In this document: positions 27,430 through 44,205 of the stretch, in pieces
How the letters are laid out: the number at the start of each line of letters is the position of its first letter
Position numbering within the stretch: the stretch's first letter is position 1
Assembly: GCA_049517655.1 (NCBI GenBank)
Contig: JBEKRQ010000003.1
Location: 132,906 to 196,905, forward strand
Reading direction: 5' to 3'
DNA: 64,000 nt
Origin: Verrucomicrobiota bacterium
GTDB taxonomy: Bacteria; Verrucomicrobiota; Verrucomicrobiia; Limisphaerales; UBA11358
Position numbers and translations under genes: made by a program
Notes under the pieces: generated by a model
What the model was told of the DNA's origin: nothing
The model's database searches: none
Seen by the model: only the letters and a program-made list of their open reading frames with translations

Positions 27430-27430
27430 T

Positions 27431-29449: not shown

Positions 29450-29613
29450 AAAATTTTAGAACTCATACAGCGGCGGGAAAATTCCCGCCGCCTTTTTTAT
29501 GAACCACAAAGGCACAAAGGTTTTATCCGCGAATTGCGCGAATTTTCACAAATAATTTTAACCGCAGCCTGTCCGCCGTAGCCTTGGCGGAGGCGGAAGA
29601 CGCAGAGAAGAAA

Positions 29614-29743
29614 TCCGCAGATTACGCAGATTGCCGCAGATTTTGAGGTAGGGCGCGCACTCCGTGCGCGCCGCAGGTAGGGACGCCTGCGCTACATTCT
29701 TTCAGAAAAGAATCCGTGTTTATCCGTGTCATCCGTGGTTAAA
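29614..29743. repeat. ATCTGYGG-family element with a GGTAGGG-type element nested between its arms
   Basis: Left arm tccgcagattacgcagattgccgcagat and right arm atccgtgtttatccgtgtcatccgtgg. The interior 29647..29695 is ggtagggcgcgcac-tcc-gtgcgcgcc... Confidence 0.7.
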
Positions 29744-29751: not shown

Positions 29752-30453
29752 ATGAAACCGCTCGCCGATTGCCGGCTTTACGCCTTCGTTGACACGGCCT
29801 ATATGCATGGCCGCGCACCGGAAGTTGTCGCGCAACAACTCTGCGACGGCGGCGCCGATTTGATTCAACTCCGCGCAAAAAATTCTTTGCCCGATGAAAT
29901 CCGTGCAATGGCTGAAAAAATCCTGCCCATTACCCGGCGGGCAAACGTCGGCCTCGTCATCAATGATTACGTGGACATCGCCTACGACCTCAATACGGAT
30001 TTTTGTCATTTGGGACAGGAAGATTTTTTCGGTGCCGGGTTTAAAAACGTTTCTCAACTTAAAGGTAGGGACGGCTCTCCGAGCCGTCCGTTGGGACGCG
30101 GAACTTCCGTCGGCGCGCTCGGAGAGCGCGCCCTACCAGAAGTGCGGATTGGTTTGTCAACGCATTCTCCGGAACAGGCACAGCGCGCATTGGCGGCGGG
30201 CGCGGATTACATCGCCATCGGACCGGTGTTTGCGACGGGCACAAAGCCGACTGCAAAACCGGTAACGCTCGAATACGTCCGCTGGGCGGCGATGAATGTG
30301 ACCATTCCATGGTTCGCCATTGGTGGCATTAATCTGGAAAATCTCGACAGCGTTTTGGCGGCAGGCGCAAAGCGGATTTGCGTGGTGTCAGCAATTTTGA
30401 ATGCGAAAGATGTGACAAAAGCCTGCGCGGAATTTCGGAAAAGGTTGTGCTAA
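29752..30453 (+). CDS. thiE: thiamine-phosphate synthase
   Basis: LIQLRAK, HLGQED and ADYIAIGPVFATGTK motifs. Confidence 0.88.
   Translation: MKPLADCRLYAFVDTAYMHGRAPEVVAQQLCDGGADLIQLRAKNSLPDEIRAMAEKILPITRRANVGLVINDYVDIAYDLNTDFCHLGQEDFFGAGFKNVSQLKGRDGSPSRPLGRGTSVGALGERALPEVRIGLSTHSPEQAQRALAAGADYIAIGPVFATGTKPTAKPVTLEYVRWAAMNVTIPWFAIGGINLENLDSVLAAGAKRICVVSAILNAKDVTKACAEFRKRLC
30064..30137. repeat. GGTAGGG-type compound palindromic element inserted in frame in thiE
   Basis: ggtaggg...ccctacc outer stem with hairpins ggacggctc/gagccgtcc and ggcgcgctc/gagcgcgcc. It encodes GRDGSPSRPLGRGTSVGALGERALP. Confidence 0.8.
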
Positions 30454-30525
30454 ACACCTTCTCCAATCAATAGTTTCAATTTCGCTTGTCTTGAATCCTC
30501 ATTCATTCAAGCATTCATCCAAGCC

Positions 30526-32214
30526 ATGAAAACTCCCACTTCAGACAATTTCTTTCACCGGGCATCTGCAGTTTGTCTGGTCGGTTTGTTCCTTTGTGTT
30601 TTATTGCCGCAGTCACGCGCGGCTGAACCATACAAAGCGACGAATGGCGAATTTTCCGTCGTCGGCGATGCGGTGGTTGAATTGTTGCAAAGTCATGACA
30701 CGGCACGGTTCGCCAAAGAGTTAGCTCCGACCATCGAGGACTTTCGAGCCATCCTTTCAACTAATACGGTGGTGAAGGATGCAGACCCATTAAAAGGTTT
30801 TCAAGGCACGGTTGAAGACGACCGCCGAAGGGTTGAGTCAAGTGCCAAAGCGCTTTTAGCAAAGGCTGAGACATTGCATTTGGATTTTTCGAAGGGAAAA
30901 ATCCAAATGCACATTAACACACCAAAGTATTTGGGAACAACGCGATGGTCTAGTCTTCAAGCTGAGAATGAATCAGTGCCCTATGCGGAAGAAGTGGAGA
31001 TTGAATTTAATCTGGATTCGGACGCAACCAGTTCAACCAACGGCAATTTCAAGATCGCTGTGCGAGGTTTGAACAAGTTTCCGGGCGGCTGGCGAACTTA
31101 TCAAGGGGTTCAATGGCTGGCTTTTCCCACCAACATCGCGGATGAAAAGACTCAGCGTGAGATAAGCATCATGTCCTTGGCGATGGCATATAAAGGTTTC
31201 GATAGTCAACTTGATCCGTCACTCACCAAACTTGGTGAAACACTGGTTCGTTTCCTTCGCGAGCGGGATATGCGCCTTTACCAGCAAGAAGCTCTGGTCA
31301 CCGCCGACATGACTTGGGCGCAGCTTCAAAAGAGTGCCGGGGGGAAAGGGCCTTCACGGCAGGAGTTTGATAAGATGTGGAACGAGCATCAATCAGATTT
31401 GATTGACGCGGCACGTTCGACCCTCAAGCAGATGGATGACGCTGGCATTGATTTGAAGGATGCCAAGATTCAAATCCAAGAAGCTGCCGTTGAACAAAGC
31501 GATCTCCGCAGTGGCCCCGGCTCGTTGGATGGCTTGGAAGGTAATCAGTTTCAAGTCAAACTGTCGGTCAAATCGGAAAGGAAGGCCAAGATTGGAAAAT
31601 CTTTATCTGGGGACTATGTCCTTGCTGTCAACGAAATCACCCGCTTTGGGGATGATTGGAGAATTACCGACAAGGTTCGCTGGGATAAATTTCCGGCGGG
31701 CGTGGTTGACGAAAAAACCGAAGCAACTTTGGAGTTTGAAAACCATGTCGCCAAATATCGCAGTTTGCCACCAGGAATGGCTGCTCCCGAGATTGAATTC
31801 ATACGCTTCGACAACGAACAGAAGATGAAACTGTCCGATTTGCGCGGCAAAGTGGTGGTGCTGGATTTTTGGGCGACTTGGTGCGGCCCTTGTCAGGAGC
31901 CGATGGCAAAGTTGCAGACCATCCGGCAAGCCCATCCTGATTGGAAAGATAGCGTAACCATTGTGCCTTTAAGCATTGATGACACGTTGAAACAAGTCCG
32001 CGACCATGTGGACAAACGCGGCTGGACAAACACCTTCAATGTTTGGGCTGGGCCGGGCGGTTGGATATCAACGCCAGCAAAGACCTTTCGCGTGACTGGT
32101 GTTCCGACCACCTACATTATTGATACCAAAGGCAAGATTGTTAACGCTGGCTATCCTCTTGAAGATTGGATCGTTCAGATAGTGAATGGTTTGCTGAAAG
32201 CACAAAAGCCGTAA
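30526..32214 (+). CDS. secreted protein with C-terminal TlpA/redoxin-like thioredoxin domain
   Basis: Signal peptide. The C-terminus carries VVLDFWATWCGPCQEPM (CxxC redoxin). The N-terminal ~400 aa are unassigned. Confidence 0.75.
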   Translation: MKTPTSDNFFHRASAVCLVGLFLCVLLPQSRAAEPYKATNGEFSVVGDAVVELLQSHDTARFAKELAPTIEDFRAILSTNTVVKDADPLKGFQGTVEDDRRRVESSAKALLAKAETLHLDFSKGKIQMHINTPKYLGTTRWSSLQAENESVPYAEEVEIEFNLDSDATSSTNGNFKIAVRGLNKFPGGWRTYQGVQWLAFPTNIADEKTQREISIMSLAMAYKGFDSQLDPSLTKLGETLVRFLRERDMRLYQQEALVTADMTWAQLQKSAGGKGPSRQEFDKMWNEHQSDLIDAARSTLKQMDDAGIDLKDAKIQIQEAAVEQSDLRSGPGSLDGLEGNQFQVKLSVKSERKAKIGKSLSGDYVLAVNEITRFGDDWRITDKVRWDKFPAGVVDEKTEATLEFENHVAKYRSLPPGMAAPEIEFIRFDNEQKMKLSDLRGKVVVLDFWATWCGPCQEPMAKLQTIRQAHPDWKDSVTIVPLSIDDTLKQVRDHVDKRGWTNTFNVWAGPGGWISTPAKTFRVTGVPTTYIIDTKGKIVNAGYPLEDWIVQIVNGLLKAQKP

Positions 32215-32414
32215 ATTTATTTCAATCTCCACTCGCTGCGGCTGCCGTGAATTAAAAAACCTGTATCGCGGAGAACTTGAAGTTACTGGCGGATTTTGAA
32301 AGCGGCGGAGGGCCGCCGCAGTCCAAGACGTGGGCGCGTTTTCCAACGACCTTTAAACCTCGCGAAGCGTCTTGGAGTGCGCCAGTCCTCGGCGCTTTGG
32401 GCGGGCGGGAAATT

Positions 32415-32447
32415 ATTTCAGCGCGATGACCCGGATGGGGACGGTGA
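32415..32447 (+). repeat. 33-bp repeat (D-type), copy 1
   Basis: atttcagcgcgatgacccggatggggacggtga matches 35495..35527 at 31/33. Confidence 0.8.
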
Positions 32448-32477
32448 ATGTGGACGCAACCGGATGAAACCGGCGGC

Positions 32478-32825
32478 TCACTCAATCGGCACGCCCAAGG
32501 CTTTGGCAGCCGCCTGTATCGCCTGCTCTTTTGTGGTGCGCTCACGGTCGGACTTCTGTAGGCGCATCACATCAGCATGTTTCAAGAATGACTCTGCGCT
32601 GCTCAAAAGGCGTTCCACGTTTTCACGAAAACCGGGCGGGAAGGTTGAAGGACTAAAAATGAGAATCCCGTCCCTGACAAAGGCTGGATGATAATGACCC
32701 AGTTGCTCGTCAGTCTCCAACATCTGCCGAAACTTTTCAAAGACCTGCCCGCTCAATTTCGGGTCTGTGGTCATGGCAATGCTGTTTTCACCACAGAGTT
32801 CTCTGTTGATGGATTTGATTTTCAT
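32478..32825 (-). CDS. hypothetical protein
   Basis: 115-aa ORF with no recognised family. Confidence 0.4.
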   Translation of the reverse strand: MKIKSINRELCGENSIAMTTDPKLSGQVFEKFRQMLETDEQLGHYHPAFVRDGILIFSPSTFPPGFRENVERLLSSAESFLKHADVMRLQKSDRERTTKEQAIQAAAKALGVPIE

Positions 32826-32940: not shown

Positions 32941-33240
32941 CTACGGCAAACGCCAGCCACCGCGCTCGATGTGCAATAGCAGACCAGTATCACGCAGGAC
33001 TTGAAGCCTGATTTTATCGTGGATGTGGCGATTATCTGGATGAAGCTTTTCCAACTCGCGAGTGAAATGGGGAGCACACGCGCCCCGCGTGTTGTTCGTC
33101 GCGCCCTCGCGGCGAACATTTCGGGTGTAATGAACGACATTGTGTAGCCTCATTCCCACGAATGCCAACGACGAGGGCGTCGTTGGCTGCACGCGAGGCG
33201 CGTGCGCTCCCCAGCACGATGTTCAAAACGTCCAATCCAG
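32941..33240 (-). pseudogene. fragment of a DpnI-like restriction enzyme gene (C-terminal winged-helix part), frameshifted and repeat-disrupted
   Basis: FTRELEKLHPDNRHIHDKIRLQVLRDTGLLLHIERGGWRLP* parallels the C-terminus of the intact gene at 38591..39358. LDVLNIV lies upstream in another frame. Inverted ggggagcgcacgcgcc / ggcgcgtgtgctcccc arms interrupt it. Confidence 0.75.
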
Positions 33241-33404
33241 CATGGTGGGACAGAGCCGCCGCTCTGCCCTAAAATTGGGGCGGCGCAGCAACGCCGCCCT
33301 ACCGTGATTTCACCCGAGGGGTTTGACGCGACAGAAGTGGACTCGCTCGCGCCATGGGGTGTTCACCCCATAGCCAGCCAGCCAGAACCGGTTAATCTAG
33401 CAGC

Positions 33405-33797
33405 ATGAAAATAAATCAACTCCGCTGGACAATCCGGCTGCTGTTATTGAATGTGACCCTTGCGCTTTTAGCCACTGGTTGCGCCACACCCACTGGATCC
33501 TACAATCAGGATTTCCATCAAAACCTTCCCACCTCACCCAACTATGCCATTGAGAATGTTAATGACACGGATTTCCACGTTATCGTCCATCAAGGCACTG
33601 CTTTGAAGGGATCGGATCGCATCATTTATGTGAAACAAGTGGCCTCGGCTGTTGCTGAAAACGAAGCCAAAAACAGGGGCTGGAAAAACTATGACCTTAA
33701 TTATGTTCAAGAATACGACCAAGGGTGGATGCACGTTGTTGTAGCCGATATCACCCGTAAGAACGCTGTCGAAAAAACACCCAGATCAACCCAATAA
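33405..33797 (+). CDS. hypothetical lipoprotein
   Basis: Lipobox LLATGC after a signal peptide. 130 aa. Confidence 0.6.
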   Translation: MKINQLRWTIRLLLLNVTLALLATGCATPTGSYNQDFHQNLPTSPNYAIENVNDTDFHVIVHQGTALKGSDRIIYVKQVASAVAENEAKNRGWKNYDLNYVQEYDQGWMHVVVADITRKNAVEKTPRSTQ

Positions 33798-33824
33798 CAA
33801 ACCATAGGTTTCACCGATTCGGTT

Positions 33825-33869
33825 TTAACCGCCAAGACGCCAGACACCGCGCTCGACGTGTAATAGTAA
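33825..33869 (-). repeat. relic of DpnI-like gene 3' end (copy R2)
   Basis: The minus strand reads LLLHVERGVWRLGG*. Confidence 0.65.
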
Positions 33870-33951
33870 GGACAAGGCGCTACTCAGCTCCACCTGTGAC
33901 CTAACATGACGAGTTTTACGGCTGATACCTAGTTTTGTCAGATTGGCTCCG

Positions 33952-34299
33952 TTAAACTGTAAATACTTTTGCGGCAAGATTTATCGCTTGATCCATCGCG
34001 TTGGTCACTTGCGTTGCAACTGAAATAACATGAATCCAATCACTTATTTGTGTCTGGACACTCTGTAGTTTGGCGTTCACCGCAGCGACATTGGCTTTGA
34101 GTATGGTGTACTGAGTCGTGCTGGAATCTAAAGCTCCTTGGTTCAATGTGGTCAAGATATCAGACACAGCTTGAGCTAAACCGTTAATGGCGTCTTTTGC
34201 TTCAATAGTTGAAGCAACCCAATACGCTTGATTTAACAAGTTGTACAACCGTTGAAGCGACTGCTGGTAATTGTTCTGGACAGGAGAAGAGATAATCAT
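33952..34299 (-). CDS. hypothetical protein (helical, A+T-rich gene)
   Basis: 115-aa ORF 12 nt downstream of the 34311..35357 ORF on the same strand. Confidence 0.5.
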   Translation of the reverse strand: MIISSPVQNNYQQSLQRLYNLLNQAYWVASTIEAKDAINGLAQAVSDILTTLNQGALDSSTTQYTILKANVAAVNAKLQSVQTQISDWIHVISVATQVTNAMDQAINLAAKVFTV

Positions 34300-34310
34300 A
34301 TGCGAGTATT

Positions 34311-35357
34311 CTATTTAGAACTTTGCAGAGAGTTATAATATGTGTTGATTCTTTGTGATTCGGTGATGAGTTCGTTGATAAGCGTGTTGATATTGGTCGT
34401 GTTATTTGAAAAGGCTTCTCCTAAGGCTTTATGGGCTGCTGCCAATTTAACCGTGGCCGACTCCATCGATGCAAACGTAGTATCGGCATTTCTCATTTCT
34501 TGTGTCAAAGCTGCCATTTCCTGAATCTCTGTGCGCTTTTCACCGGGATTCTTATCAAATTGACTCAGGTTGTTTAGAATATACTGGTTGTTGTTTCGTA
34601 AAGTGTCATCGTAATCATTTGCCAACTGTTGCCTGAGAATTTCAAAATCCCTCTGCAAAAGCTGGCAAATGTCCGCAACAGGCTGTTGCATTAGGGCAAT
34701 GTTTTTTTCGGCTTCTTTTTGTTGCTTCCAAGTGATCAGCCAGTGTCCCAGTGTATTGACGGCAACCGTAAAAATCTGAAGTTCCTGTGTTGTGGCCGGT
34801 GCCTTATTGAAAAAAGATGCTTTGACAAGAGCCTGATCAACATTGGTCAAAGCTTGTCCAAGCTTTGTTGTATCCTGGTCGAAGTTCGTGAGTGAACTAT
34901 TACCCATAAGGACAGACAAATTGGCCGCATATGATTTTAATCCATTAAGAACGTCAAGCCTGACCTGCAACGCATTCGTATCCATAAAAGGCTTAATGGC
35001 ATCCGGGTTATAACCTGTTTTGATGTCATAATTTAAAACCGTAACGCTTACTTCCTCCTTAAAGTGATTGTCCTCAACCAGCTTGAAGGCCTGTGTGGTG
35101 TTATTTGCTGTTAACGTTACTGCATCTGAAAAATTTTTGATCTGCTTGGCGGCATCAGGACTGGCACACCCCGCAATAGCGGCCATCAACGCAGCCAGCA
35201 ACAAGTAATTGATGGATCTACGGTGAAATTTAGAGTCTTCAGTTCTATCCGGCTGTAGCTCGAGGTTGAGCTTCCCGTAACAAAAGTGACCCGGACTTAG
35301 TTTGCCCAACGGCTCGGGTTGTTCGAGTTGACGAATGAGTCTTTCTCTGTTGGCCAT
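34311..35357 (-). CDS. hypothetical lipoprotein
   Basis: 348-aa ORF with an internal signal/lipobox LLLAALMAAIAGCASP, so the true start is uncertain. No family recognised. Confidence 0.5.
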   Translation of the reverse strand: MANRERLIRQLEQPEPLGKLSPGHFCYGKLNLELQPDRTEDSKFHRRSINYLLLAALMAAIAGCASPDAAKQIKNFSDAVTLTANNTTQAFKLVEDNHFKEEVSVTVLNYDIKTGYNPDAIKPFMDTNALQVRLDVLNGLKSYAANLSVLMGNSSLTNFDQDTTKLGQALTNVDQALVKASFFNKAPATTQELQIFTVAVNTLGHWLITWKQQKEAEKNIALMQQPVADICQLLQRDFEILRQQLANDYDDTLRNNNQYILNNLSQFDKNPGEKRTEIQEMAALTQEMRNADTTFASMESATVKLAAAHKALGEAFSNNTTNINTLINELITESQRINTYYNSLQSSK

Positions 35358-35494
35358 AATTTTCCTCTGGATTTTCGAAAATCAGCAGAAATTTCAGATT
35401 ATGTCAATATCCGTCTTATTCGCGGCGGGCTTTTATTCATCCAATCACTCGCTTGCCAACGTTTAGTGTTTTGGTCAAACGCAACGCCGCACTC

Positions 35495-35527
35495 ATTTCA
35501 GCGCGATGACCCCGATGGGAACGGTGA
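35495..35527 (+). repeat. 33-bp repeat (D-type), copy 2
   Basis: atttcagcgcgatgaccccgatgggaacggtga, directly abutting relic R3. Confidence 0.8.
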
Positions 35528-35532
35528 TTGAC

Positions 35533-35586
35533 TCAAGGAATCCGCCAGCAATTCCGTTCAACATGCAAAAGCAGATTGCGGTCGCG
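35533..35586 (-). repeat. relic of DpnI-like gene 3' end (copy R3)
   Basis: The minus strand reads RDRNLLLHVERNCWRIP*. Confidence 0.7.
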
Positions 35587-35617
35587 GCTTGCTTTGCCTC
35601 TTGGCGTTGAAAAGGAT

Positions 35618-35656
35618 TTCACGGAATCTGCCAGCAACCGCGTTCGATTGTAGGAG
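35618..35656 (-). repeat. degenerate relic of DpnI-like gene 3' end (copy R4)
   Basis: The minus strand reads LLQSNAVAGRFRE. Nucleotide pattern ttcacggaatctgccagcaaccgcgttcga parallels the other copies. Confidence 0.5.
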
Positions 35657-35801
35657 TCGAGGTCACAAGACTGGTTCCGAAAAGGAAATTTGAGACTCGT
35701 TTCTTAATCCAACGAACAATATACAATCAGCGAACAAGTAAGAGTCAAAAAACACCGGAAGTTTACTTGACGTCCGGAGTTGAAAGCAGAAAGGTTCCGT
35801 T

Positions 35802-36806
35802 ATGCCTGCGTATTGGATGATTACGGATCGGGCCATCAAAAATGGCCTGCCCACCGACGACCAAGGGCCGTTGAAATATTTTGTAAGCGACAAGGCGCCG
35901 CTCGATAACTTTAAAAACTGGCAGCCCGTTTCCTCCGATGCCTTCACAAAGTTGCTCACCGCTGCCGCCGACCAATTCCCCGCGTTGGACCACGCCGAAA
36001 ACGAGAAGCAAAATCACGTCACGTTTTTCGTTCATGGCTACAATGTCGGTTGGGACGATGCCGCCCGCCGTTACCAACAACTCTGTGCTGACCTTTACAG
36101 CGGCCCGGACAGTCTCGGCATTTGCATCAGCTTCGACTGGCCATCGCTCGGCAGCGTGCTCGGTTATTTGCCCGACCGTGACCACGCGCGGGATTGTGCG
36201 AACGACCTGGTTGATGTGCTCGGCCAGCTTTACGACTGGTTGCTGGACAAACAGCAAGCCGCCATGGATGACCCGGCTGATGCGTGCAAAGCCAAAATAT
36301 CCGTGATTTCCCACAGCATGGGCAATTATGTCGTCCAGAAAGCCATGGCCGCCGCTTGGACGCGCAAAAACCAGCCACTGCTCGTCAGCCTCATCAATCA
36401 ACTCGTCATGATTGCCGCCGACGTGGACAACGACCTCTTTCAACCGGACGCCAGCGACGGCAGCGATGGCAATGCACTGGCGAATCTCACCTATCGCATC
36501 ACCGCGCTTTACAGCGGGCGCGACGCGGTGCTGGGTGCTTCCGCCGGCCTGAAACATTTCGGCACACGCCGTTTGGGACGCACCGGGCTGGCCGTTCGTC
36601 CGCCCACCGGCAAGGACAATGTCTGGGACATTGACTGTTCGAGTTTTTTTCCGGACAGCGTGGGCGGCATGGACATCCACAGCGCCTATTTTGGCCAATA
36701 TGGGACCCTGCCTTTGATTCGCGATTTATTGCGCGGGCTTGACCGTTCCGTTCTCTACGCACTCGGCGAAACGCAAGGTCACGCCTGGCCACCGGCTCCT
36801 AAATAA
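35802..36806 (+). CDS. alpha/beta hydrolase, DUF900-like
   Basis: HVTFFVHGYNVGWDDA and the nucleophile elbow ISHSMGNYV. Confidence 0.7.
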   Translation: MPAYWMITDRAIKNGLPTDDQGPLKYFVSDKAPLDNFKNWQPVSSDAFTKLLTAAADQFPALDHAENEKQNHVTFFVHGYNVGWDDAARRYQQLCADLYSGPDSLGICISFDWPSLGSVLGYLPDRDHARDCANDLVDVLGQLYDWLLDKQQAAMDDPADACKAKISVISHSMGNYVVQKAMAAAWTRKNQPLLVSLINQLVMIAADVDNDLFQPDASDGSDGNALANLTYRITALYSGRDAVLGASAGLKHFGTRRLGRTGLAVRPPTGKDNVWDIDCSSFFPDSVGGMDIHSAYFGQYGTLPLIRDLLRGLDRSVLYALGETQGHAWPPAPK

Positions 36807-36823
36807 TCACAAAACAATGACAT

Positions 36824-37660
36824 ATGAGCATTACCATTAAGAGCAAAACCGTGGACATCAAAATAGAAATTAACGGCAATGAAGCGGACGGTCATGTGAT
36901 CCCATTAGATGTGCAACATGAAGAATCCGAAAAGATCATGCGGATGCATTACTCGCTAATGGGTGAAACAATACCAATGTTGTCTCCGCTGTTCGGTGAA
37001 TTCTCAACTGATGAAAAAACTGATGAAAAGATGGCAACATACCGTTACGACTGGTCGGTCGGCCTCACATTGATAGACCCTTGTTATTTGTGGAACTGGA
37101 TGAAAACCATACGGGAGAAACGCGCCATGGCAGTTCAATTGTTAATTGACTGCGGCGATAGCGGATACAGCTTTACAGAACTTTCCGCAGTCTTGCTTAC
37201 ATTGCAACCCTCTCTCGAAGGCTCGTCATTATATGATAAGTATGCAGATAAAATTGGGGATAGCCTGTCAAAGTTGTCAGAGATCACCCAACCGTTTAAT
37301 CAGACGGCTGCAGGTGTCTTCAGGCTTACCGCAGCGATGTCTAATTTAATTAGTTCCGGTGAAAAGAATGACAAAAAATGGTTCATTTACAGGTTTCTTG
37401 ATGAAAGAAAGAAATGCTGTGCCATAGAATGGAACATCAATCGGAACGTATTCGAGAATTACGGACCGCTTTTGCGGGGTTCCCTAATCCTAAACTTTCA
37501 CGGAACCAAAAATGCAGGCAGTAATGGTTCAATAGAAATGCTTCTTCGGCCTCGACTTGGGTTTGCCAAGTACGAGATTGCTTATTTGCCGCCGGAAAAC
37601 GAATTGGAGAAGAAAGATCCGGTTGCTTTATCTATAAAACCAACCGAAAAAAAGCGCTGA
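36824..37660 (+). CDS. hypothetical protein (partner of DUF900-like hydrolase)
   Basis: 278-aa ORF 17 nt downstream on the same strand. No family recognised. Confidence 0.55.
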   Translation: MSITIKSKTVDIKIEINGNEADGHVIPLDVQHEESEKIMRMHYSLMGETIPMLSPLFGEFSTDEKTDEKMATYRYDWSVGLTLIDPCYLWNWMKTIREKRAMAVQLLIDCGDSGYSFTELSAVLLTLQPSLEGSSLYDKYADKIGDSLSKLSEITQPFNQTAAGVFRLTAAMSNLISSGEKNDKKWFIYRFLDERKKCCAIEWNINRNVFENYGPLLRGSLILNFHGTKNAGSNGSIEMLLRPRLGFAKYEIAYLPPENELEKKDPVALSIKPTEKKR

Positions 37661-37731
37661 AATGTAAAATGGGTGGATGCTTAAAACATTCACTTCAGCC
37701 CGACTCGTCGCGGCTAAACGGAGTGAAGATG

Positions 37732-37754
37732 GATGACCCAGATGGGAACGGTGA
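37732..37754 (+). repeat. D-type repeat, partial copy 3
   Basis: gatgacccagatgggaacggtga, 15 nt upstream of relic R5. Confidence 0.7.
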
Positions 37755-37769
37755 CGGTGCCGCGCAACC

Positions 37770-37805
37770 TCACGGCAGACGCCAGTGACCGCAAAGTGGT
37801 TGAAG
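37770..37805 (-). repeat. relic of DpnI-like gene 3' end (copy R5)
   Basis: The minus strand reads LQPLCGHWRLP*. tcacggcagacgccag is identical to the intact gene end at 38591. Confidence 0.6.
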
Positions 37806-37930
37806 GTTGAGATGCGCGATTGCTGGCCCTTGAATTGATATTCATTTGTGTCAATATCAAGAACTGACCCGTTTTTTTGGCGATTGGTGTCGCGGGCAGA
37901 GCAACCATCAACGAATGAAAGATCCGGTTT

Positions 37931-38590
37931 ATGAAAACTGACCTGGAATTGAAGAAGGACATATTAGCTGAACTCGCATACGAGCCAAGCATCAACGCCG
38001 CAGACATCGGTGTCTTGGTGAAGCAAGGGGGTGTATTGCTCAATGGCTCGGTAAGCAGTTATGCTGCGAAAGAGGCGGCGGCGCACGCGGCCAAACGGGT
38101 TGCCGGGGTGAAGGGTGTGGCGGATGAAATTGCCGTTCATCTGCCTGCTTCCTCCCGCCGTACCGACGACGAGATTGCTGCTGCCGCAACCAAATCGATA
38201 GACTGGACTATCACGGTTCCGGCCGGTGCCGTCACGGTAATGGTCCGCGATGGCTGGCTTACTTTGAAGGGCGTTGTCGAGTGGGCGCACCAGAAGTACG
38301 CCGCTGAAGAAGCGGTGCAGCGTTTGACGGGGGTTAAAGGGATAAACAATTTAATCATAATCAGACCGAAGCAACCGACCCCCTCGAACGTAAACACGGC
38401 AATTAAGGCAGCCTTTGAGCGGCACGCACTGCTCGACGCCGGGAAGATCACGGTGGAGACTTCCGGAAGTAAGGTGGTGCTCCGCGGCACTCTTGGCAGT
38501 TGTTTGGAGCGTGAGGAAGCTGAGCGCGCTGCCCGGTCTGCACCCGGCGTGTCCGAAGTCGAGAATAACATTATTATTCATATGTGGTGA
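37931..38590 (+). CDS. BON-domain protein (OsmY-like, three BON repeats)
   Basis: Repeated ...V.V.V..G.V.L.G.V........A...A..V.GV..V.N.I... units. Confidence 0.75.
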   Translation: MKTDLELKKDILAELAYEPSINAADIGVLVKQGGVLLNGSVSSYAAKEAAAHAAKRVAGVKGVADEIAVHLPASSRRTDDEIAAAATKSIDWTITVPAGAVTVMVRDGWLTLKGVVEWAHQKYAAEEAVQRLTGVKGINNLIIIRPKQPTPSNVNTAIKAAFERHALLDAGKITVETSGSKVVLRGTLGSCLEREEAERAARSAPGVSEVENNIIIHMW

Positions 38591-39358
38591 TCACGGCAGA
38601 CGCCAGATGCCGTGTTCGACGTGAAGCAATAATCCGGCGTCGCGCAAGACTTGGAGTTGTTGGCGAATCTTATCTTTGACGTGCCGATTGTCGGGATGAA
38701 GTTTTTCCAACTCGTGGGTGAAGACGTAAACATTTTCGTTGGTGAATTCCGTTTTTCCCAAGCGACGGACGATATTCAAAACGTCCAGCGTCCAGCCGCG
38801 TTCTTTGGCTTTGATTTCGCCAAGTGGTTTGACGCGTCGGAATTTCTCGCGGACTTCATTCTCCGGCGTAACTCGACTTTCCGTGACCACAGCAATTCGT
38901 GCGTCAACTGGAATCCGATTCAAAGCAAAGTTGCATCCAATCCAACCAGCGCGTCTTGCTGTTGGCGAAAGCGGTTTTCGTTTGATGATGGCTGACGGCG
39001 GAAAAGCAAAATATGGAACAAGTAACAAATTTCTAACTCTCCAAGTTGCCAAGTCGTAGTGTAGAAAATAGAAGTTCGGAGTTCGGTCGTTTTTAATTGC
39101 TTCCATCATTGCGCCATAAGCGCCATCCGTGATGGAACTGCCGATTCGTGTCTTTTGGCTTTTTAGCTGATACCAAAATCCGCAATTCGGGCAGCGATAG
39201 TCATTGGCTTTCGTGTTCGGTTTGAGCCAATCCAATTTTGGTGAAGAACAATTTGGACAATAAAAATTATCAGCGCCCCAAGCTTCTGTGACATTTCCAG
39301 CCTTTTGCGAACCGCTTTTGTAAGTGGCTGCAAGTTCGCCAGACATGGAAAGCTTCAC
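38591..39358 (-). CDS. DpnI-like (methyl-directed type IIM family) restriction endonuclease homolog
   Basis: Collinear with my recollection of S. pneumoniae DpnI: TYKSxSQKA, YCPNC...CPNC, LKS, DGAY..MM, PNF.FL.Y, RKPL.PTARRAGWIGCN. C-terminal winged helix ...KIRQQLQVLRD. GTG start. Confidence 0.8.
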   Translation of the reverse strand: MKLSMSGELAATYKSGSQKAGNVTEAWGADNFYCPNCSSPKLDWLKPNTKANDYRCPNCGFWYQLKSQKTRIGSSITDGAYGAMMEAIKNDRTPNFYFLHYDLATWRVRNLLLVPYFAFPPSAIIKRKPLSPTARRAGWIGCNFALNRIPVDARIAVVTESRVTPENEVREKFRRVKPLGEIKAKERGWTLDVLNIVRRLGKTEFTNENVYVFTHELEKLHPDNRHVKDKIRQQLQVLRDAGLLLHVEHGIWRLP

Positions 39359-39389: not shown

Positions 39390-40817
39390 TCAACTCGATT
39401 TCACGCGAAAGATTTCTGTTTCGCAGCGGACGACGTGCGTTGTTTCCCGTTTCTTACCAGTCGGTGTTTTAGCCCATGCCTCCTGCAAACCTACGTCAAC
39501 AGTCGTGTGAACGACCGCGCCGCGCTCGACCTCGGCGCATGAAAGAAACACGAACTTGCATTCGTGAAAGATGCGCTCGGTCGGCACTTGCGGTTTGTCG
39601 TCCATCGAGCGCGATCCATTGATCGAATCGGAAAACAGATCAAGATCATTTTGAGAAAAAACTGAAACTTCAATTCTTACTTGGAAATTCCGCAACCAAA
39701 TCAAAACGATTTCCCGTTCGGCGCGTTTGGCCGTCAGCGTGAGGTAGGCGAAGTTCAATTCAATTCCGACGCAGCCGCGTTTGATGTGGAGCGCGGCGAT
39801 GGCGGTTGTTCCGCCGCCGAGAAACGGGTCGAGAACCAAATCGCCTTCGTTGGTCGAGGCCAACAGGCAGCGTTCAACCAGCGCAATCGGTTTCTGAGTA
39901 GGGTGCTTGCCGAAAGCTTTCTCGCCGTTGGACGGAGAAGGAAGCGTCCAGACGGACGAGAAAGAGGAGTCAGGAGTATGGAGTAAGGAGGAAGTGTCAG
40001 ATTCTTGCTCCCTGCTCCTTGCTCCTTCATCCTTCGTCGCGCTGGCGACGTCTCTCCACACGGTTTTCATCTGTTTGCCGGTGACTTTCCGCATTTCCTG
40101 ATAGTTAAATACGTGTTTACTTTTTTCATTTTTGGCCGCCCACAGAACGGTTTCAGTTGAGTGCGTGAAATAGCGGCAGCTCAAGTTCGGCGGCGGATTG
40201 GGTTTTTCCCAGGCGATGTCGTTGAGGATTTTGTAGCCGAGTTGTTGCAGGGCATAGCCGATGGAGAAAATGACGTGATGCGTGCCGCTCACCCAAATCG
40301 TTCCGTTGGGTTTGAGCACGCGCTGACAGCGTCGCAGCCATTCGAGATTGAATTCGTGGTTCAGTTCCGGTCCACGCGATTTATCCCAGTCGCCTTTATC
40401 GACCTTCACCATTTTGCCGGCGTGACAGGTGATGCCGCCGTTGGACAAGAAATACGGCGGGTCGGCAAAGATGGCGTCGAACCGGCCATCGGGATATTTG
40501 GTGGCGATGGCGTCGAGGAGTTCGAGACAATTACCGTGGTAAAGCCAGAGGCCGCGCGCGGAATCAGAGTAAACAAGGCGCGGCAGGCCAGAAGCCGGAG
40601 GTCGGAGATCGGACTTCTGACTTCCGATTTCTGACATCTGAACAATTGAGCCGTCTTCGCGAAGTTTGAAATGCGCGGAGGTCAGAGGTCGGAAGGCGGA
40701 TGCCGGATGCCGGAGGTCAGAGGTCTGACTTCTGTCTTCTGTCTTCCGGCTACCGGGTTTCGGCGGCTTGGATTTGTAGAACGAGCGGCGTTTGGTTGGT
40801 TTCGACTTTTTCGGCAC
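39390..40817 (-). CDS. beta-class N6-adenine (or N4-cytosine) DNA methyltransferase, DpnA/M2.DpnII-like
   Basis: FADPPYFLSNGG ... DKGDWDK ... NLSCRYFTHSTET ... GKHPTQKP ... LDPFLGGGTT. The start is uncertain (GTG 40817 or ATG 40637). The N-terminal part, an internal loop and the ~110-aa C-terminal tail are non-canonical. Confidence 0.82.
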   Translation of the reverse strand: MPKKSKPTKRRSFYKSKPPKPGSRKTEDRSQTSDLRHPASAFRPLTSAHFKLREDGSIVQMSEIGSQKSDLRPPASGLPRLVYSDSARGLWLYHGNCLELLDAIATKYPDGRFDAIFADPPYFLSNGGITCHAGKMVKVDKGDWDKSRGPELNHEFNLEWLRRCQRVLKPNGTIWVSGTHHVIFSIGYALQQLGYKILNDIAWEKPNPPPNLSCRYFTHSTETVLWAAKNEKSKHVFNYQEMRKVTGKQMKTVWRDVASATKDEGARSREQESDTSSLLHTPDSSFSSVWTLPSPSNGEKAFGKHPTQKPIALVERCLLASTNEGDLVLDPFLGGGTTAIAALHIKRGCVGIELNFAYLTLTAKRAEREIVLIWLRNFQVRIEVSVFSQNDLDLFSDSINGSRSMDDKPQVPTERIFHECKFVFLSCAEVERGAVVHTTVDVGLQEAWAKTPTGKKRETTHVVRCETEIFRVKSS

Positions 40818-41608: not shown

Positions 41609-41854
41609 AGTTATTCTTTTGTTGGTTTCCTTATGCACCAGATTGGTGCCAATAGCAAGCATGCACTTGCCGAAGAACATGCCCGCTTCGCTGATGATTT
41701 TCACACAACTGCCTTCGCGCGAGTGGCGCTACGGCGCGTCAAGAAGACGCAAAGACGCAGATGTTTGAATCGCGCGAAGGCCGCGACGGTTGCGAAGGAT
41801 TTTGAAGAATTATTTCCCCTTCGTGTGCTTCGTGTTCTTCGCGCGAAACTTTTC

Positions 41855-41990: not shown

Positions 41991-43001
41991 CTAATTGCGC
42001 GTGATGATGACATTCCCGCCATCGGGCACGACGTCGAACATGACATACTTTTTCGAGGCGACATCAACGATTTGCGCGTTGACCGGTTTGTTGTTCTGTG
42101 AAACGGCGGCTGACAGCCAATTCTCCGGCAACGGCCTGCGCAACGTAATTGGATAGTTAAAAATCGTGTCATCGAGATTATCGGTTACCTGAAGGGTGAT
42201 GCTGTCGTTGCCTGCGGCGGTTTCCCTGACCGATGCCGCGTTGCGCTCGAGGATGTAACGGGCGACGTTGCCGAATGTTTCCACCCAGAATTTATCCTTG
42301 TTGGCGCTCAAATAATCAATGCTGCCTTGCAGTGTCGCGGTCGTAATGGGCGAATAACCTCCGTCGTTGTCGATGCCATGAATCAGATACACGCACCAAC
42401 GTTTTGTGGCGGCGGTTTGATTCGCTTTGTTATTGAAATCCTGCGCGGTCTTCACCGCGCCCTGCGTGCCGCAAACGAACGAGCTTATTTCCATGAAGTT
42501 CGCGGGGTTGGCAGGCACCAATTGCCCCGAGCATGTCCGCGCGGCGATGTAATATTGCGAAACGAGCGAATCGTTACCGGGCACGCAATACGGGTAGGCC
42601 ATGGTAACGCATTTTTGGCCGGGGATGTTCGTGCTGATTGCGTCCTTGGAATCCTTGAGTTCTGTTGCCTGCTGTGAGTCCGGCAATTTCCCAAAATTGG
42701 CATGTGTCACGGTGTGACTGGCGATTTCGTGTCCCTTGGCTGCGGCGGCTTGCAGTTTTGACCATCCGGGAAACATGGAATTACCAGTCACGGTGAACAG
42801 CGTCAGCTTGAAACCTTTCTGATCGAACATCGGTATCGCCACGGTAAATTGGTTCGAGCAACCGTCATCGAACGTGTAGGAAATCGCCGCCGGCCGGAAC
42901 CCACGCCATGTTCCTACCTCATACGGCGACGCAATCGAACCGGCCAGGCTGGCTGAAGCGATGAATGTCATGATGAAAAAAAAGAGGACAGATGTTTTCA
43001 T
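41991..43001 (-). CDS. polysaccharide deacetylase (CE4/NodB-like), secreted
   Basis: Signal peptide, then ISYTFDDG...GHEIASHTVTH. Confidence 0.8.
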   Translation of the reverse strand: MKTSVLFFFIMTFIASASLAGSIASPYEVGTWRGFRPAAISYTFDDGCSNQFTVAIPMFDQKGFKLTLFTVTGNSMFPGWSKLQAAAAKGHEIASHTVTHANFGKLPDSQQATELKDSKDAISTNIPGQKCVTMAYPYCVPGNDSLVSQYYIAARTCSGQLVPANPANFMEISSFVCGTQGAVKTAQDFNNKANQTAATKRWCVYLIHGIDNDGGYSPITTATLQGSIDYLSANKDKFWVETFGNVARYILERNAASVRETAAGNDSITLQVTDNLDDTIFNYPITLRRPLPENWLSAAVSQNNKPVNAQIVDVASKKYVMFDVVPDGGNVIITRN

Positions 43002-43048: not shown

Positions 43049-43114
43049 CATCCGCAGATGACGCAGATTGCGCAGAAAAAACAAATCAGCGAAATCTGTG
43101 GAATCTGCGGATAA
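43049..43114. repeat. ATCTGYGG-family palindromic element
   Basis: catccgcagatgacgcagattgcgcag ... cgaaatctgtggaatctgcggataaa. Confidence 0.8.
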
Positions 43115-43201
43115 AGAAAGCTTAGTGTCTTTGTGTCTTCGTGGTTATTCCTTTGGGTTATTCGCTCGAATTGGCGTTCATGGCAGGTTAAATTAATTTG
43201 C

Positions 43202-43567
43202 ATGTTGTTGGTCACGTCGGACAAGTCGAAGCAGTTGCTGTATTTGAGTTACATAGGGCAAGTGCGGCTGGATGAGCTTCAGCGCGCTGAAAAGGATTTG
43301 ACGATGCAAATGGGGGAATTGTCACCGGGCTTTCGAGTGCTGGCGGATTTCAGCCGGGTTGAGTCCATTGGATTGGATTGCGCGCCTGAACTCGGCCGGC
43401 TGATGGATTTGATTGGGCAAGCGGGTGTGGGCTTGGTGGTGCGAGTCATTCCGGATCTGGGAAAGGACATCGGGTTGAACATCCTGACGGTTATTCATTA
43501 CCCGCAACAACTGCAGGTGATTACTTGCAAAAGCGTGGCCGAGGCAATCAAAGCGCTGGCACTTTAA
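43202..43567 (+). CDS. hypothetical protein (possibly STAS-like)
   Basis: 121 aa from the ATG at 43202. The fold assignment is a weak impression only. Confidence 0.45.
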   Translation: MLLVTSDKSKQLLYLSYIGQVRLDELQRAEKDLTMQMGELSPGFRVLADFSRVESIGLDCAPELGRLMDLIGQAGVGLVVRVIPDLGKDIGLNILTVIHYPQQLQVITCKSVAEAIKALAL

Positions 43568-43761
43568 TTTTTGGTTCGCGCGAAGGCCGCGATGGTTGCA
43601 AAGGATTTAAAGAATAATTTTCCCTTTGTGCGCTTCGCGCTCCCCGCCTCGGCGCAGCCAACGGTGAAGCCTGGGTTCGCGCGAAAACATTTTTTAATAC
43701 AAGGACGCGAAGGCGCAAAGAAAGGCTTGTTTTCCGCCACTTTTAAGGCGATAATTCCATC

Positions 43762-43968
43762 ATGGAAATTGTCTTCACCGTGACGCAGGAAAGCGATGGC
43801 GGTTATGTCGCTGAATGTCTTTCGCATGACATTTTCACGCAAGGCAACACGTGGGAGGAATTGCGCGCCAATGTGCGCGAGGCTGTGTCGGCATTTTTTT
43901 TCGACCAGCCCAAGCCCGCCGCCGTGCGGCTGCATCTGGTGCGGGATGAACTTCTGGCCAACGCATGA
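43762..43968 (+). CDS. hicB: HicB-family antitoxin
   Basis: MEIVFTVTQESDGGYVAECLSHDIFTQGNTWEELRANVREA is UPF0150/HicB-like. 4-nt overlap with the next gene. Confidence 0.75.
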   Translation: MEIVFTVTQESDGGYVAECLSHDIFTQGNTWEELRANVREAVSAFFFDQPKPAAVRLHLVRDELLANA

Positions 43969-44204: not shown

Positions 44205-44205
44205 C

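Follow-up and report, generated by a model that had tools for sequence, protein, structure and literature searches.

Layered 3' ends of a predicted DpnI-family restriction gene and unrelated cargo genes in Verrucomicrobiota DNA

Introduction

In the neisserial minimal mobile elements, at the dam/drp locus (which includes a DpnI-family gene) and at the pneumococcal DpnI/DpnII locus, alternative cassettes lying between conserved flanks are swapped by homologous recombination after DNA uptake. The array described here, contained in a 64-kb stretch of Verrucomicrobiota DNA (the window), resembles these loci in the involvement of a DpnI-family gene and in the exchange by homologous recombination that we propose for it. 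Those exchanges, however, are clean replacements, and no stacked remnants are left.

Stacked remnants are known from rhs/CDI orphan arrays, for which C-terminal displacement has been proposed to involve homologous recombination with a circular intermediate that bears part of the gene (Jackson et al. 2009, PMC2935791). As in the DpnI array, an intact gene is followed by same-strand, 5'-truncated fragments of the same family and of variable length; the likeness extends to fragments that represent different incoming variants, to a slow process and to arrangements common to related strains (PMC2935791). The rhs arrays repeat the conserved core and vary in an in-frame toxin tip with its immunity gene, whereas the DpnI array repeats the gene's own 3' terminus with its stop codon and varies in unrelated downstream genes of either orientation, with no evident toxin/immunity logic. 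For the T6SS effector-immunity modules of Vibrio cholerae, sequential displacement by homology-facilitated illegitimate recombination has been proposed (Kirchberger et al. 2017, PMC5361080). There too a conserved upstream homologous anchor is present and new modules push old ones downstream with no integrase (PMC5361080), but the old genes retained are immunity genes under selection, whereas pseudogene ends and miscellaneous cargo are retained in the DpnI array, which is anchored by a restriction enzyme gene.

Results

The intact gene and its neighbour

The gene that anchors the array (copy c6, positions 38591-39358, minus strand) is predicted to encode a true DpnI-family methyl-directed restriction endonuclease, its product matching Pfam DpnI (5.6e-58) and DpnI_C (6.3e-24) and the type II methyl-directed REase of PADLOC (mREase_II, 1.8e-73). 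Directly upstream, at 39390-40817 on the minus strand, lies a gene for an N6_N4-class DNA methyltransferase (Pfam N6_N4_Mtase 3.5e-56; PADLOC MTase_II). Part of the tail of this ORF, MDDKPQVPTERIFHECKF, shows homology to the opening ~15 codons of a BglII-like gene, X; the tail resembles the start of X in locus L017, MADMPEIQTERERCEF.

The intact DpnI gene reads as a mosaic. Its identity to locus L045 was 96-100% over the 5' 250 nt, 68-84% across a patch in the middle and 72% over the final 50 nt. Nucleotide identity to L028 was ~94% from the last ~45 nt of the gene through the adjacent BON gene, and most of the 3' 150 nt of DpnI was only 70-78% identical to that locus.

Copies of the DpnI 3' end

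A tblastn search of the whole 64-kb window with the DpnI protein gave same-strand copies between 32.2 and 38.6 kb and none elsewhere. The 3' end recurs at seven places, all on the strand of the gene; an earlier note, made from the sequence, had recognized the recurrence and the common strand but counted six, and the additional copy is c0 at 32217-32300 (minus strand; KIRQ-stop-LQVLRDTGFLIHGSRSEWRLK-stop, ending WRLK-stop). This copy was matched by tblastn at 32223-32297 (E 1.5e-4) and by nhmmer (E 1.9e-12), ends 2 nt from the stop of a convergent thioredoxin-like gene and is read as the oldest, since it is the farthest from the intact gene.

Copy c1 (32941-33336, minus strand) covers DpnI residues ~172-255, starting near residue 172 (RVKPLG), and was matched at 32944-33117 (E 5e-17). 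It is frameshifted, as had been noted, but extends beyond the 100-codon fragment at 32941-33240 first described, and it is split by a palindromic, MITE-like insertion of 146 nt (33068-33213) with a fold z-score of -7.55. In the repeat analysis of the window, c1 and its insertion appeared as families D2, D10 and D14 and inverted repeat I2. Small palindromic repeats were common in these genomes.

Copy c2 (33825-33910, minus strand; ...RHV..LLLHVERGVWRLGG-stop) was matched at 33834-33905 (E 1e-3), and its convergent lipoprotein-stop/DpnI-stop junction was also present in L028, L049, L052, L054, L060 and L061. A match at 35536-35691 (E 3e-3) fell on c3 (35533-35590, minus strand; RDRNLLLHVERNCWRIP-stop) and c4 (35619-35651, minus strand). 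The latter consists of ~10 codons (TIERGCWQIP-stop), has no cargo of its own and is the degenerate copy reported before at 35618; it is 81% identical to c3 over 27 nt (family D7). Copy c5 (37770-37876, minus strand) is a DpnI remnant with an internal deletion, in which YQFKGQQSRIS (residues ~62-72, 37808-37840) is fused to the last 6 codons and the stop (37770-37787). GHWRLP-stop (tblastn, 37773), previously taken for the entire copy at 37770, is thus only part of it. The remaining segment, 37841-37876, corresponds to a junction common to L028, L003 and L030, and the last 16 nt of c5 and c6 are identical (family D3).

The window copies were 50-81% identical to one another; they are remnants of different DpnI alleles and not a dispersed repeat. 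At least one, c3, belongs to an allele class other than that of c6; its nucleotide identity was 88% to the 3' terminus of intact DpnI in L003 versus 71% to c6.

Three of the DpnI copies are followed by 3' ends of the second gene, X, on the same strand (...TVPIWVIALK-stop). These are located at 37732-37761 (RLRGTVTVPIWVI..., the 3' end of the BglII-like endonuclease gene), 35493-35528 (ITVPIGVIALK-stop) and 32411-32470 (..TFTVPIRVIALK-stop, with a 1-nt deletion), all on the minus strand. The intact X of L017 matched Pfam Endonuc-BglII at 1e-7, scoring 32.3 bits where the cutoff is 26.

Layers of cargo

Behind each remnant comes a different small set of ordinary genes, which lie in both orientations, and seven layers can be distinguished, starting from the intact gene: DpnI with a BON gene; c5 and an X 3' end with a DUF900 gene and partner; c4; c3 and an X 3' end with genes for 348 and 115 aa; c2 with a lipoprotein gene; c1 with a 115-aa ORF and an X 3' end; and c0 with the chromosomal gene Trx562. 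The interval contents agree with those named in the earlier note, and the intact copy on top and the farthest copy adjoining a conserved chromosomal neighbour bear out the serial deposition that it suggested.

The first block (37882-38590, plus strand) comprises a BON-domain (OsmY-like) gene at 37931-38590 (Pfam BON 1.2e-43) and 49 nt upstream. The stop codons of BON and DpnI abut, making TGATCA, and the same BON/DpnI-stop junction was found in L028, L089 and L090. This BON is an ordinary gene of chromosomal origin, usually located elsewhere in a stress-gene cluster without DpnI. The second block (35802-37660, plus strand) holds the DUF900 alpha/beta hydrolase gene (35802-36806; Pfam DUF900 2.5e-26) and its 278-aa partner (36824-37660), for which no PADLOC or NCBIfam match was obtained. 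The fourth layer carries an A+T-rich two-gene module (33952-35357, minus strand), to whose 348-aa and 115-aa products no family was assigned by Pfam, PADLOC or NCBIfam.

In the fifth layer, a 130-aa lipoprotein gene (33405-33797) with short flanks (33338-33824, plus strand) was 90, 85 and 79% identical at the nucleotide level to L045, L028 and L029, respectively, and the shared block stops at the boundaries of c1 and c2. The 115-aa ORF of the sixth layer (32478-32825, minus strand) was 87% identical in nucleotides to L030 16854-17287, which likewise follows a DpnI pseudogene. Beyond c0 lies the conserved chromosomal flank (29752-32214, plus strand) with thiE (29752-30453) and the thioredoxin-like lipoprotein gene Trx562 (30526-32214), which c0 abuts. 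Elsewhere in the window, a 40-nt direct repeat (97.5% identical) bounds an insertion of 5.8 kb between kdsB and glmS; L045 lacks this insertion.

Related loci

Comparison with 45 related loci, consisting of 10-kb flanks from MAG and metagenome contigs, showed that all DpnI units (95/95) lie on one strand. Among them 71 were partial, all on the gene strand, and the stop codon was kept in 44. The end bearing the start codon was present in two of the 71; since the loci concerned show nothing but partial matches close to where the fetched stretch stops, both are read as cut by the contig or locus edge, and none as truly keeping the start. The 5' limits varied from ~12 to ~700 nt before the stop (profile positions 59-712 plus very short classes), and some remnants were nearly whole genes. 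Very short remnants (4-17 codons) with the exact stop, for example xWRLP-stop, LHIERGxWRLP-stop and RDAGLLLH...WRLP-stop, were over-represented relative to random breakpoints.

In the closest relative, L045, DpnI is 93% identical and the flanks (ligA...MTase-DpnI / thiE-PFK) are shared, but the cargo differs (isochorismatase, HicAB and the lipoprotein), so that cassette content is not fixed; this cargo is punctuated by thiE 3' ends. Remnants of the thiE 3' end (38-63 nt) were found in L045, L050, L051, L056 and L060. In these arrays the displaced copy has the window-type terminus and the intact copy a new one; in L051 the novel terminus is on the intact thiE rather than on the remnant. The same architecture is built on the thiE and BglII-like X 3' ends, whose sequences are unrelated.

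A protein identical to the window DpnI (P0001) was encoded in 71 contigs, and one single arrangement was seen in 25 of 25 independently assembled contigs with identical DpnI protein (up to 566 kb). These organisms are known solely from metagenome assemblies and small palindromic repeats are frequent in them, so the copies might be put down to chance, to a generic dispersed repeat or to faulty assembly. Such an origin is extremely improbable and is effectively refuted by the protein-level homology (E values down to 5e-17) confined to one part of the window, by the strand bias of the codon pattern W-R-[LIVF]-P-stop (47 on the gene strand versus 4 on the opposite strand in all loci and the window), by the 25 concordant contigs and by similar arrays in many independent MAGs, some in contigs of up to about 1 Mb. 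Many Verrucomicrobiota genomes carry similar stacks. A generic repeat unrelated to DpnI, which the earlier note had set against its own proposal, was accordingly not what was found.

Search for a site-specific system

The earlier note had explained the array by an attachment or cassette recombination site. The last DpnI codons would then act as an att or attI-like site for an integrase encoded elsewhere in the genome, and small integrase-less cassettes or degraded islands would have been inserted serially. Tandem island accretion at the 3' end of a tRNA or protein gene likewise leaves displaced 3' ends as direct repeats between insertions and the intact gene at one end, and integrons and CALINs (attC clusters without integrase) also hold small cassettes without mobility genes, the newest apparently beside the fixed site. 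The many very short remnants with an exact stop codon, the perfect 16-nt direct repeat bounding the BON unit, the small cassettes that lack mobility genes and recur beside DpnI ends in several genomes, and the apparent order with the newest next to the gene would suit such a system.

Accretion islands, however, carry or depend on an integrase and have a fixed core at each boundary, neither of which was found in the array. It also differs from integrons, since no attC-like structured sites or IntI were found, the cassettes lie both ways and appear to bring their own upstream regions, and the repeat is coding sequence of the neighbouring gene. Neither the 40 large ORFs of the 64-kb window, in agreement with the earlier note, nor 20 cargo ORFs from the 10-kb flanks of related arrays encoded an integrase or recombinase; the distal cassette ends shared no recurrent motif or hairpin, and no plasmid or phage match was obtained. 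The spread of 5' limits, which includes near-complete pseudogenes, fits variable breakpoints and not one core site, the copy that carries the 16-nt repeat is an internally deleted DpnI pseudogene, the thiE and BglII-like ends give the same pattern, and 25 contigs of the same strain show one identical arrangement. An integrase-served site is therefore not supported and we regard it as improbable, although the serially displaced gene ends proposed with it remain.

Discussion

Insertion with long target duplication offers another explanation, in which the resident DpnI 3' end would be duplicated over tens to hundreds of bases at each insertion, by an unspecified mechanism, and the copies would then diverge by decay and allelic replacement of the intact gene. 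Such insertions, which lack mobility genes, lie between direct repeats >30 bp whose sequence occurs once in a relative (Nobusato 2000; Furuta et al. 2010, PMC2853133). They are documented mostly in naturally competent bacteria, the repeats sometimes overlap a gene 3' end, and R-M loci are involved (PMC2853133). The kdsB-glmS insertion of the window, an independent case, and the short thiE remnants of relatives would agree with this. In the published cases, however, the R-M system is the inserted DNA, with one event per site (PMC2853133), whereas in DpnI arrays the R-M gene serves as target or anchor, as many as about 15 events are stacked and the copies stem from different alleles. Moreover, c3 is closer to a functional foreign allele class than to the resident gene, and the novel terminus on the intact thiE of L051 argues that incoming DNA brought its own gene end. 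We consider this explanation unlikely.

On balance, the region is rather likely to record, in layers, successive homology-anchored acquisitions of DNA on the downstream side of a restriction gene that is conserved and exchanged horizontally. This reading is favoured because the DpnI units all lie on one strand with many partial units ending at the stop, the intact gene is mosaic and c3 derives from a different allele, no recombinase was found in the 60 ORFs covered and no plasmid or phage was matched, the thiE and X 3' ends anchor the same architecture, and published models exist for the same anatomy (rhs, T6SS). Donor DNA from related bacteria would bring a DpnI gene, or its 3' part, with the donor's downstream DNA, and the incoming DpnI would pair with the resident one through ordinary homologous recombination. 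At the far end, a circle with a 5'-truncated DpnI fragment could integrate by a Campbell-type single crossover, or homology-facilitated illegitimate recombination could make a join within or close to the resident gene. Either route would yield an intact, partly new DpnI, new cargo and then the 5'-truncated old gene still joined to the old downstream DNA. Repeated rounds would stack layers, the newest adjoining the intact gene, and the stack would be eroded and reshuffled afterwards as segments were deleted, small palindromic repeats inserted and remnants recombined with one another. DpnI would thus serve as a portable block of homology, and a dedicated integrase or att site would be unneeded.

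Short homologies (4-17 codons) are poor substrates for RecA. The over-abundance of short stop-keeping remnants counts against serial displacement and calls for extra assumptions, such as later deletion, recombination between palindromic repeats near profile position 746, or joints that cluster at the end of homology. Neither a circular intermediate nor an empty site or a recent event was observed, and the 25 contigs with identical DpnI have a single arrangement, which also counts against it. As the related loci consist of 10-kb flanks, a recombinase may be encoded elsewhere in these genomes.

Serial displacement is further favoured because cargo units recur beside DpnI ends in other genomes, though some of this sharing may stem from an old array inherited vertically and not from transfer on several occasions. 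Lipoprotein cargo adjoined DpnI ends in L028, L029, L049, L052, L054, L060, L061 and L090, BON did so in L028, L089 and L090, and the 115-aa ORF in L030.

The repeated DpnI 3' ends and the genes between them

Pfam and PADLOC place the gene at 38591-39358 (minus strand) firmly in the DpnI family of methyl-directed type II restriction endonucleases. The protein contains both domains that define the family, the N-terminal catalytic domain (PF06044, 5.6e-58, residues 1-179) and the C-terminal winged-helix domain DpnI_C (PF17726, 6.3e-24, residues 186-252), and it matched the PADLOC model mREase_II at 1.8e-73; from this family membership, the enzyme is predicted to cleave Gm6ATC-methylated DNA. A methyltransferase gene of the N6_N4 class (39390-40817) is located directly upstream. 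The identical DpnI protein is encoded in 71 public Verrucomicrobiota contigs, the longest of 566 kb, and the remainder of the window is core chromosome, with genes for cytochrome bd oxidase, FtsK, CTP synthase, GlmS, PFK and LigA.

When the DpnI protein was searched against the whole window by tblastn, additional copies of its C-terminus were found on the same strand and confined to 32.2-38.6 kb. Together with repeat finding, this confirmed the recurrence of the 3' end described in the earlier note, which had counted six copies; there are seven, from c6 (the intact gene, with its stop at 38591) to c0, the farthest from it. Copies c4 (35619-35651) and c3 (35533-35590) read TIERGCWQIP-stop and RDRNLLLHVERNCWRIP-stop, respectively, c2 (33825-33910) ends in LLLHVERGVWRLGG-stop, and c1 (32941-33336) is a frameshifted copy of residues ~172-255. 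The newly added c0 (32217-32300) ends in GFLIHGSRSEWRLK-stop. Copy c5 (37770-37876), previously taken for a six-codon end, also contains YQFKGQQSRIS (DpnI residues about 62-72, at 37808-37840) joined to the last six codons, and is therefore an internally deleted pseudogene; its junction is common to three loci from other genomes (L028, L003 and L030). A 16-nt perfect repeat around the BON gene was discarded as target-site duplication or att core, since its distal copy is an internally deleted DpnI pseudogene. Inside c1 there is a palindromic, MITE-like insertion of 146 nt (33068-33213) with 24-nt terminal arms, which folds at -60.5 kcal/mol (z-score -7.55) and is single-copy in the window. Relatives of this element are present in the related loci L001, L017, L030, L032 and L035, in some cases apart from DpnI sequence.

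The gene content previously assigned to the intervals was correct: a BON-domain gene, a DUF900 hydrolase gene with its partner, an A+T-rich two-gene module and a lipoprotein gene, to which a 115-aa ORF between c1 and c0 has to be added. These cargo genes are found on both strands. Their proteins gave no PADLOC or NCBIfam defence match, and a reading of the cargo as a defence island was dropped on that ground. The abutting stops of the convergent BON and DpnI genes form a TGATCA palindrome (38585-38596), which includes GATC, the recognition core of the DpnI family, and the same stop-stop junction occurs in the related loci L028 and L089.

A second repeated gene end

A motif of 23-40 nt follows c5 and c3, is also present at 32411-32470, and is at least 94% conserved in other genomes. 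On the DpnI strand it corresponds to the C-terminus (...DLIWLRSTLTVPLWVIALK-stop) of a 144-153-aa gene, here named X, which is intact in the related loci L017 and L030 and matches Pfam Endonuc-BglII (1e-7; 32.3 bits, cutoff 26). A reading of the 23-mer after c3 and c5 as a convergent gene end (...DDPDGNGD-stop) was rejected, because that strand has no upstream ORF and because the forward frame matches the C-terminus of the intact gene in L017 and L030. In loci of the window type, DpnI lies between an X-start remnant, inside the tail of the methyltransferase ORF, and the X-end remnants. Given the match of X to BglII-type endonucleases, the methyltransferase and X look like the original R-M pair. 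In L017 the anchor that was duplicated is a gene's 5' end: about 80 nt (the methyltransferase tail plus the first ~15 codons of X; window equivalent 39574-39653) are duplicated at 6350-6601 and 7987-8069, and these copies bracket two inserted ORFs, one of which matches a PD-(D/E)XK nuclease domain below threshold.

Search for recombinases and recombination sites

The earlier note had read the 3' end either as an attachment site re-created at successive integrations or as a cassette recombination site. A scan that covered every ORF of the array, another 20 large ORFs of the window and, in related arrays, 20 large ORFs of the cargo found no tyrosine or serine recombinase (integrase or resolvase); IntI was absent from the 64-kb window. 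The sole mobility gene found in the window is an IS1595-family transposase gene (55983-56927). A related one is present near the probable native BON locus in L088, a locus from another genome. Repeat finding and hairpin scans revealed no recurrent inverted-repeat family, motif or hairpin at the distal cassette ends, and the only recurrent repeat families in the array were the DpnI-derived and X-derived coding ends. A promoter and terminator scan gave no enrichment over shuffled sequences, and plasmid and phage collections contained no match to the array. An Rfam search at permissive threshold (31.5-41.5 kb) and a tRNA/tmRNA search returned just sub-threshold miRNA-type matches; neither repeat, then, corresponds to a known RNA or to an att site of the tRNA type.

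These results separate the array from two known systems. Integrons and CALINs carry attC imperfect palindromes with conserved R''/R' boxes at every cassette end and mostly promoterless, co-oriented cassettes, whereas no such palindromes were found here and the cargo is on both strands. In integrase-mediated tandem island accretion the integrase gene is in or next to the islands, but none was present among the ORFs scanned. One part of the attachment-site reading stood: the repeats are copies of the target gene's 3' end, with an intact gene restored on one side, as expected for serial accretion. A dedicated site with a shared core and a fixed crossover at each boundary did not stand, because the 5' limits of the repeats range over profile positions 59-712 and the copies in the window are mutually 50-81% identical over their last 36 nt. 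In view of this scatter a site-specific enzyme acting in trans seems unlikely, even though the excess of very short remnants that retain the stop codon leaves room for it.

DpnI arrays across Verrucomicrobiota

A scan of one genome per species provided 42 loci, mostly from Verrucomicrobiota MAGs. A DNA profile built from 13 intact DpnI genes was then run with nhmmer over 45 sequences, namely the window, the 42 scan loci and the related contigs L045 and L046 (L047 has no separate row, and the window duplicates L043, L044 and L048 were left out). All of the 95 DpnI units detected, 24 of them full length and 71 partial, share the strand of the main gene. The stop codon is the end of 44 of the 71 partial units, and a start codon is the beginning of two, both in loci that hold partial matches only; since these two lie near the end of the fetched stretch, they were read as cut by the contig or locus edge. 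The 5' limits are scattered over profile positions 59-712, plus classes of 4-17 codons, a length shared by many remnants. Very deep loci include L028 (14 units) and L035 (9 units), and arrays reach about 15 remnants. On the gene strand there are 47 occurrences of W-R-[LIVF]-P-stop, against 4 on the opposite strand. DpnI is a single gene in the loci assigned to Acidobacteriota, Armatimonas and Patescibacteria, with the exception of L032, which is binned as Acidoferrum yet holds a Verrucomicrobia-type array.

Insertions of ~75-150 nt resembling palindromic repeats recur in the DpnI genes at profile positions ~477-487, ~601-613, ~636 and ~746, around the linker before the winged-helix domain and within that domain (L006, L007, L010, L011, L021, L024 and other loci), and several of these genes are otherwise full-length. 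Their translated pieces resemble VRLRFASPRQ or PPSRCFGATRR, and many DpnI proteins in databases exceed 255 aa (the maximum being 297 aa), as would be expected from in-frame insertions. In the L035 array no full-length DpnI unit was detected, and just upstream of it (7549-9918) there are genes for a Dam-class (D12) adenine methyltransferase and a DUF6996/DUF6997/DUF7226 protein. These may represent a DpnII-like system replacing DpnI, which would fit the expected incompatibility between DpnI and Dam methylation.

Origin of the remnants and of the cargo

Copy c3 is 88% identical to the intact 3' end of L003 (allele class RDRNLLLHVGRNCWR) and 71% identical to c6; it belongs to the L003/L017 class and so is no decayed copy of the gene now present. 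Among DpnI alleles, variation affects the HV-xxxx-W segment of the winged-helix domain. The remnants would accordingly be distinct incoming variants instead of decayed resident copies, which is clear for c3 only. The intact gene is itself a mosaic. Compared with the DpnI gene of L045, the closest relative, the first 250 nt are 96-100% identical, a middle patch 68-84% and the last 50 nt 72%. Compared with L028, identity is ~94% from roughly 45 nt before the stop through BON, and 70-78% in the remaining 3' part.

Homologues of BON (81-94% identity) were found in a stress-gene cluster devoid of DpnI in three other genomes (L087, L088 and L091), together with cytidylate-kinase-like, Usp and HAD hydrolase genes. 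In L089 and L090 a DpnI remnant abuts the BON stop and is followed by more remnants. The genes upstream of BON in L090 are those of the L088 stress cluster (YflT, DUF308, DUF1269 and CBM_48), and these common neighbours suggest that the cluster is the native locus of BON. The top layer of the window (DpnI end plus BON) looks like a piece of a locus of this native type imported via DpnI homology. The cargo differs between loci and consists of ordinary chromosomal DNA. In related arrays it includes genes for an arylsulfotransferase, GH30 and GH99 enzymes, histidine kinases, an S1/P1 nuclease, and TPR and NHL proteins.

An unbiased scan for lipoprotein homologues yielded 38 metagenome loci; the same convergent junction of lipoprotein stop and DpnI stop appeared in at least seven contexts, and thiE remnants were present in others. 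The recurrence of one junction points to descent from a single ancestral junction and makes it less likely that the lipoprotein gene is a mobile cassette in its own right.

Arrays anchored at thiE and probable long target duplications

The earlier note had proposed a comparison of the cassettes among relatives. The arrangement of the window was conserved in 25 of 25 contigs with the identical DpnI protein, and is thus uninformative on rates. L045 (DpnI 93% identical) has the same flanks, with ligA...MTase-DpnI on one side and thiE-PFK on the other, but a different cargo: isochorismatase, HicAB and the lipoprotein gene between DpnI and thiE, with no extra DpnI ends in this interval. This cargo is punctuated by two thiE 3'-end remnants (54 nt and 38 nt), which keep the window-type thiE terminus, whereas the intact thiE carries a new one. 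Remnants of 38-63 nt were located in L045 (11457-11494 and 12021-12080), in L051 (2079-2132 and 2659-2696) and also in L050, L056 and L060, and the lipoprotein, HicAB and isochorismatase cassettes that they delimit are downstream of the intact thiE. The same stacked architecture exists, therefore, with a housekeeping gene as anchor. In the window the HicAB toxin-antitoxin pair (43724-44205) is upstream of the R-M genes, and its L045 counterpart (85% nucleotide identity) is inside the thiE-anchored array, indicating that the pair moved between the sides of the R-M module.

A second difference between the window and L045 is found between kdsB and glmS, merely ~100 nt apart in L045. In the window some 7.7 kb more DNA separates the two genes, and it includes a 5.8-kb segment, lacking in L045, with radical SAM/B12 and nucleotidyltransferase genes and tandem repeats. 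The segment is flanked by a 40-nt direct repeat (17708-17747 and 23556-23595; 97.5% identical) and resembles an independent insertion with long target duplication. Complex tandem repeats with units of roughly 130-150 nt (72-90% identity) lie within it at window positions 21481-22659.

Insertion with long target duplication, a related and mechanistically open description of events at R-M loci (PMC2853133), involves direct repeats of more than 30 bp, an insert with no mobility genes and a single-copy repeat at the empty site. All three features were observed for kdsB-glmS (window vs L045) and for thiE (L045, L051 and L060 vs the window). No relative yielded an empty site for the DpnI layers, whose copies belong to different alleles. 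In the cases described the insert is itself an R-M system, whereas in the DpnI array the R-M gene takes the part of the repeated target, with unrelated genes inserted. A true target duplication at DpnI, for which the very short remnants with a stop codon also leave room, is on this evidence improbable.

Probable serial displacement anchored by homology

The best explanation for the array, and one that we hold to be moderately probable, is homology-anchored serial displacement. Two routes would each be expected to leave an intact gene, cargo and a 5'-truncated same-strand remnant on the older downstream DNA, and to do so repeatedly. In the first, proposed for rhs C-terminal displacement (PMC2935791), the resident gene recombines by one crossover with a circle that bears a 3' fragment of the same gene; in the second, proposed for T6SS effector-immunity arrays (PMC5361080), homology-facilitated illegitimate recombination places the far joint inside the resident gene. 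The rhs, CDI and T6SS arrays likewise consist of an intact gene followed by same-strand, 5'-truncated fragments of variable length from one gene family. Their variable part, however, is a toxin tip with its cognate immunity gene, and here it is replaced by BON, the DUF900 hydrolase and partner, the lipoprotein and unknown ORFs, and in relatives by glycoside hydrolases, histidine kinases, arylsulfotransferase and others. The restriction-gene anchor, the miscellaneous captured chromosomal cargo and the wide distribution in an uncultured phylum set these arrays apart from known displacement arrays, and no earlier description of them was found in the full-text literature available for searching.

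Very short remnants ending in the stop codon are in excess, and this is the main loose end. Under serial displacement such remnants may come from joints clustering at the end of the homology, from recombination between small palindromic repeats near profile position 746 (the "SPRQ-ERGVWRLP-stop" class) or from later deletions. A bolder reading, which we regard as distinctly improbable, is that Verrucomicrobiota have a dedicated, hitherto undescribed gene-capture process in which cassettes land at the 3' ends of conserved genes (DpnI, BglII-like, thiE); an unrecognised trans-acting recombinase, or a lineage-specific repair or transformation pathway giving long gene-end duplications, would stack single-gene cassettes copied from ordinary chromosomal loci, as a functional integron analogue with neither attC nor IntI.

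Serial displacement suggests that a widely exchanged restriction gene may act as portable homology, hauling unrelated chromosomal genes between genomes, and that DpnI-anchored transfer leaves an ordered, readable record of past acquisitions. It would extend sequential displacement, so far a matter of polymorphic toxin loci, to a defence gene with miscellaneous cargo, and would give an abundant but uncultured phylum of soil and peat one more way to gain genes, with no integrase required. The arrays could serve as natural markers of recombination history and DpnI allele turnover, and they account for many short "hypothetical" ORFs ending in ...WRLP-stop in annotated Verrucomicrobiota MAGs.

Other repeats in the window

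The gene for a 336-aa polysaccharide deacetylase is a partial paralogue of part of an 870-aa deacetylase gene 4 kb away (42003-42982 against 46073-47055, 68% nucleotide identity). On either side of the 336-aa gene there is one copy of a 72-nt direct repeat (41761-41832 and 43567-43637; 85% identical). Short intergenic dispersed repeats of about 30-90 nt were found in both orientations at 2624-2703, 27342-27430, 29580-29674, 43051-43115 and 49938-49970, and members of this family are also present at several places in L045.
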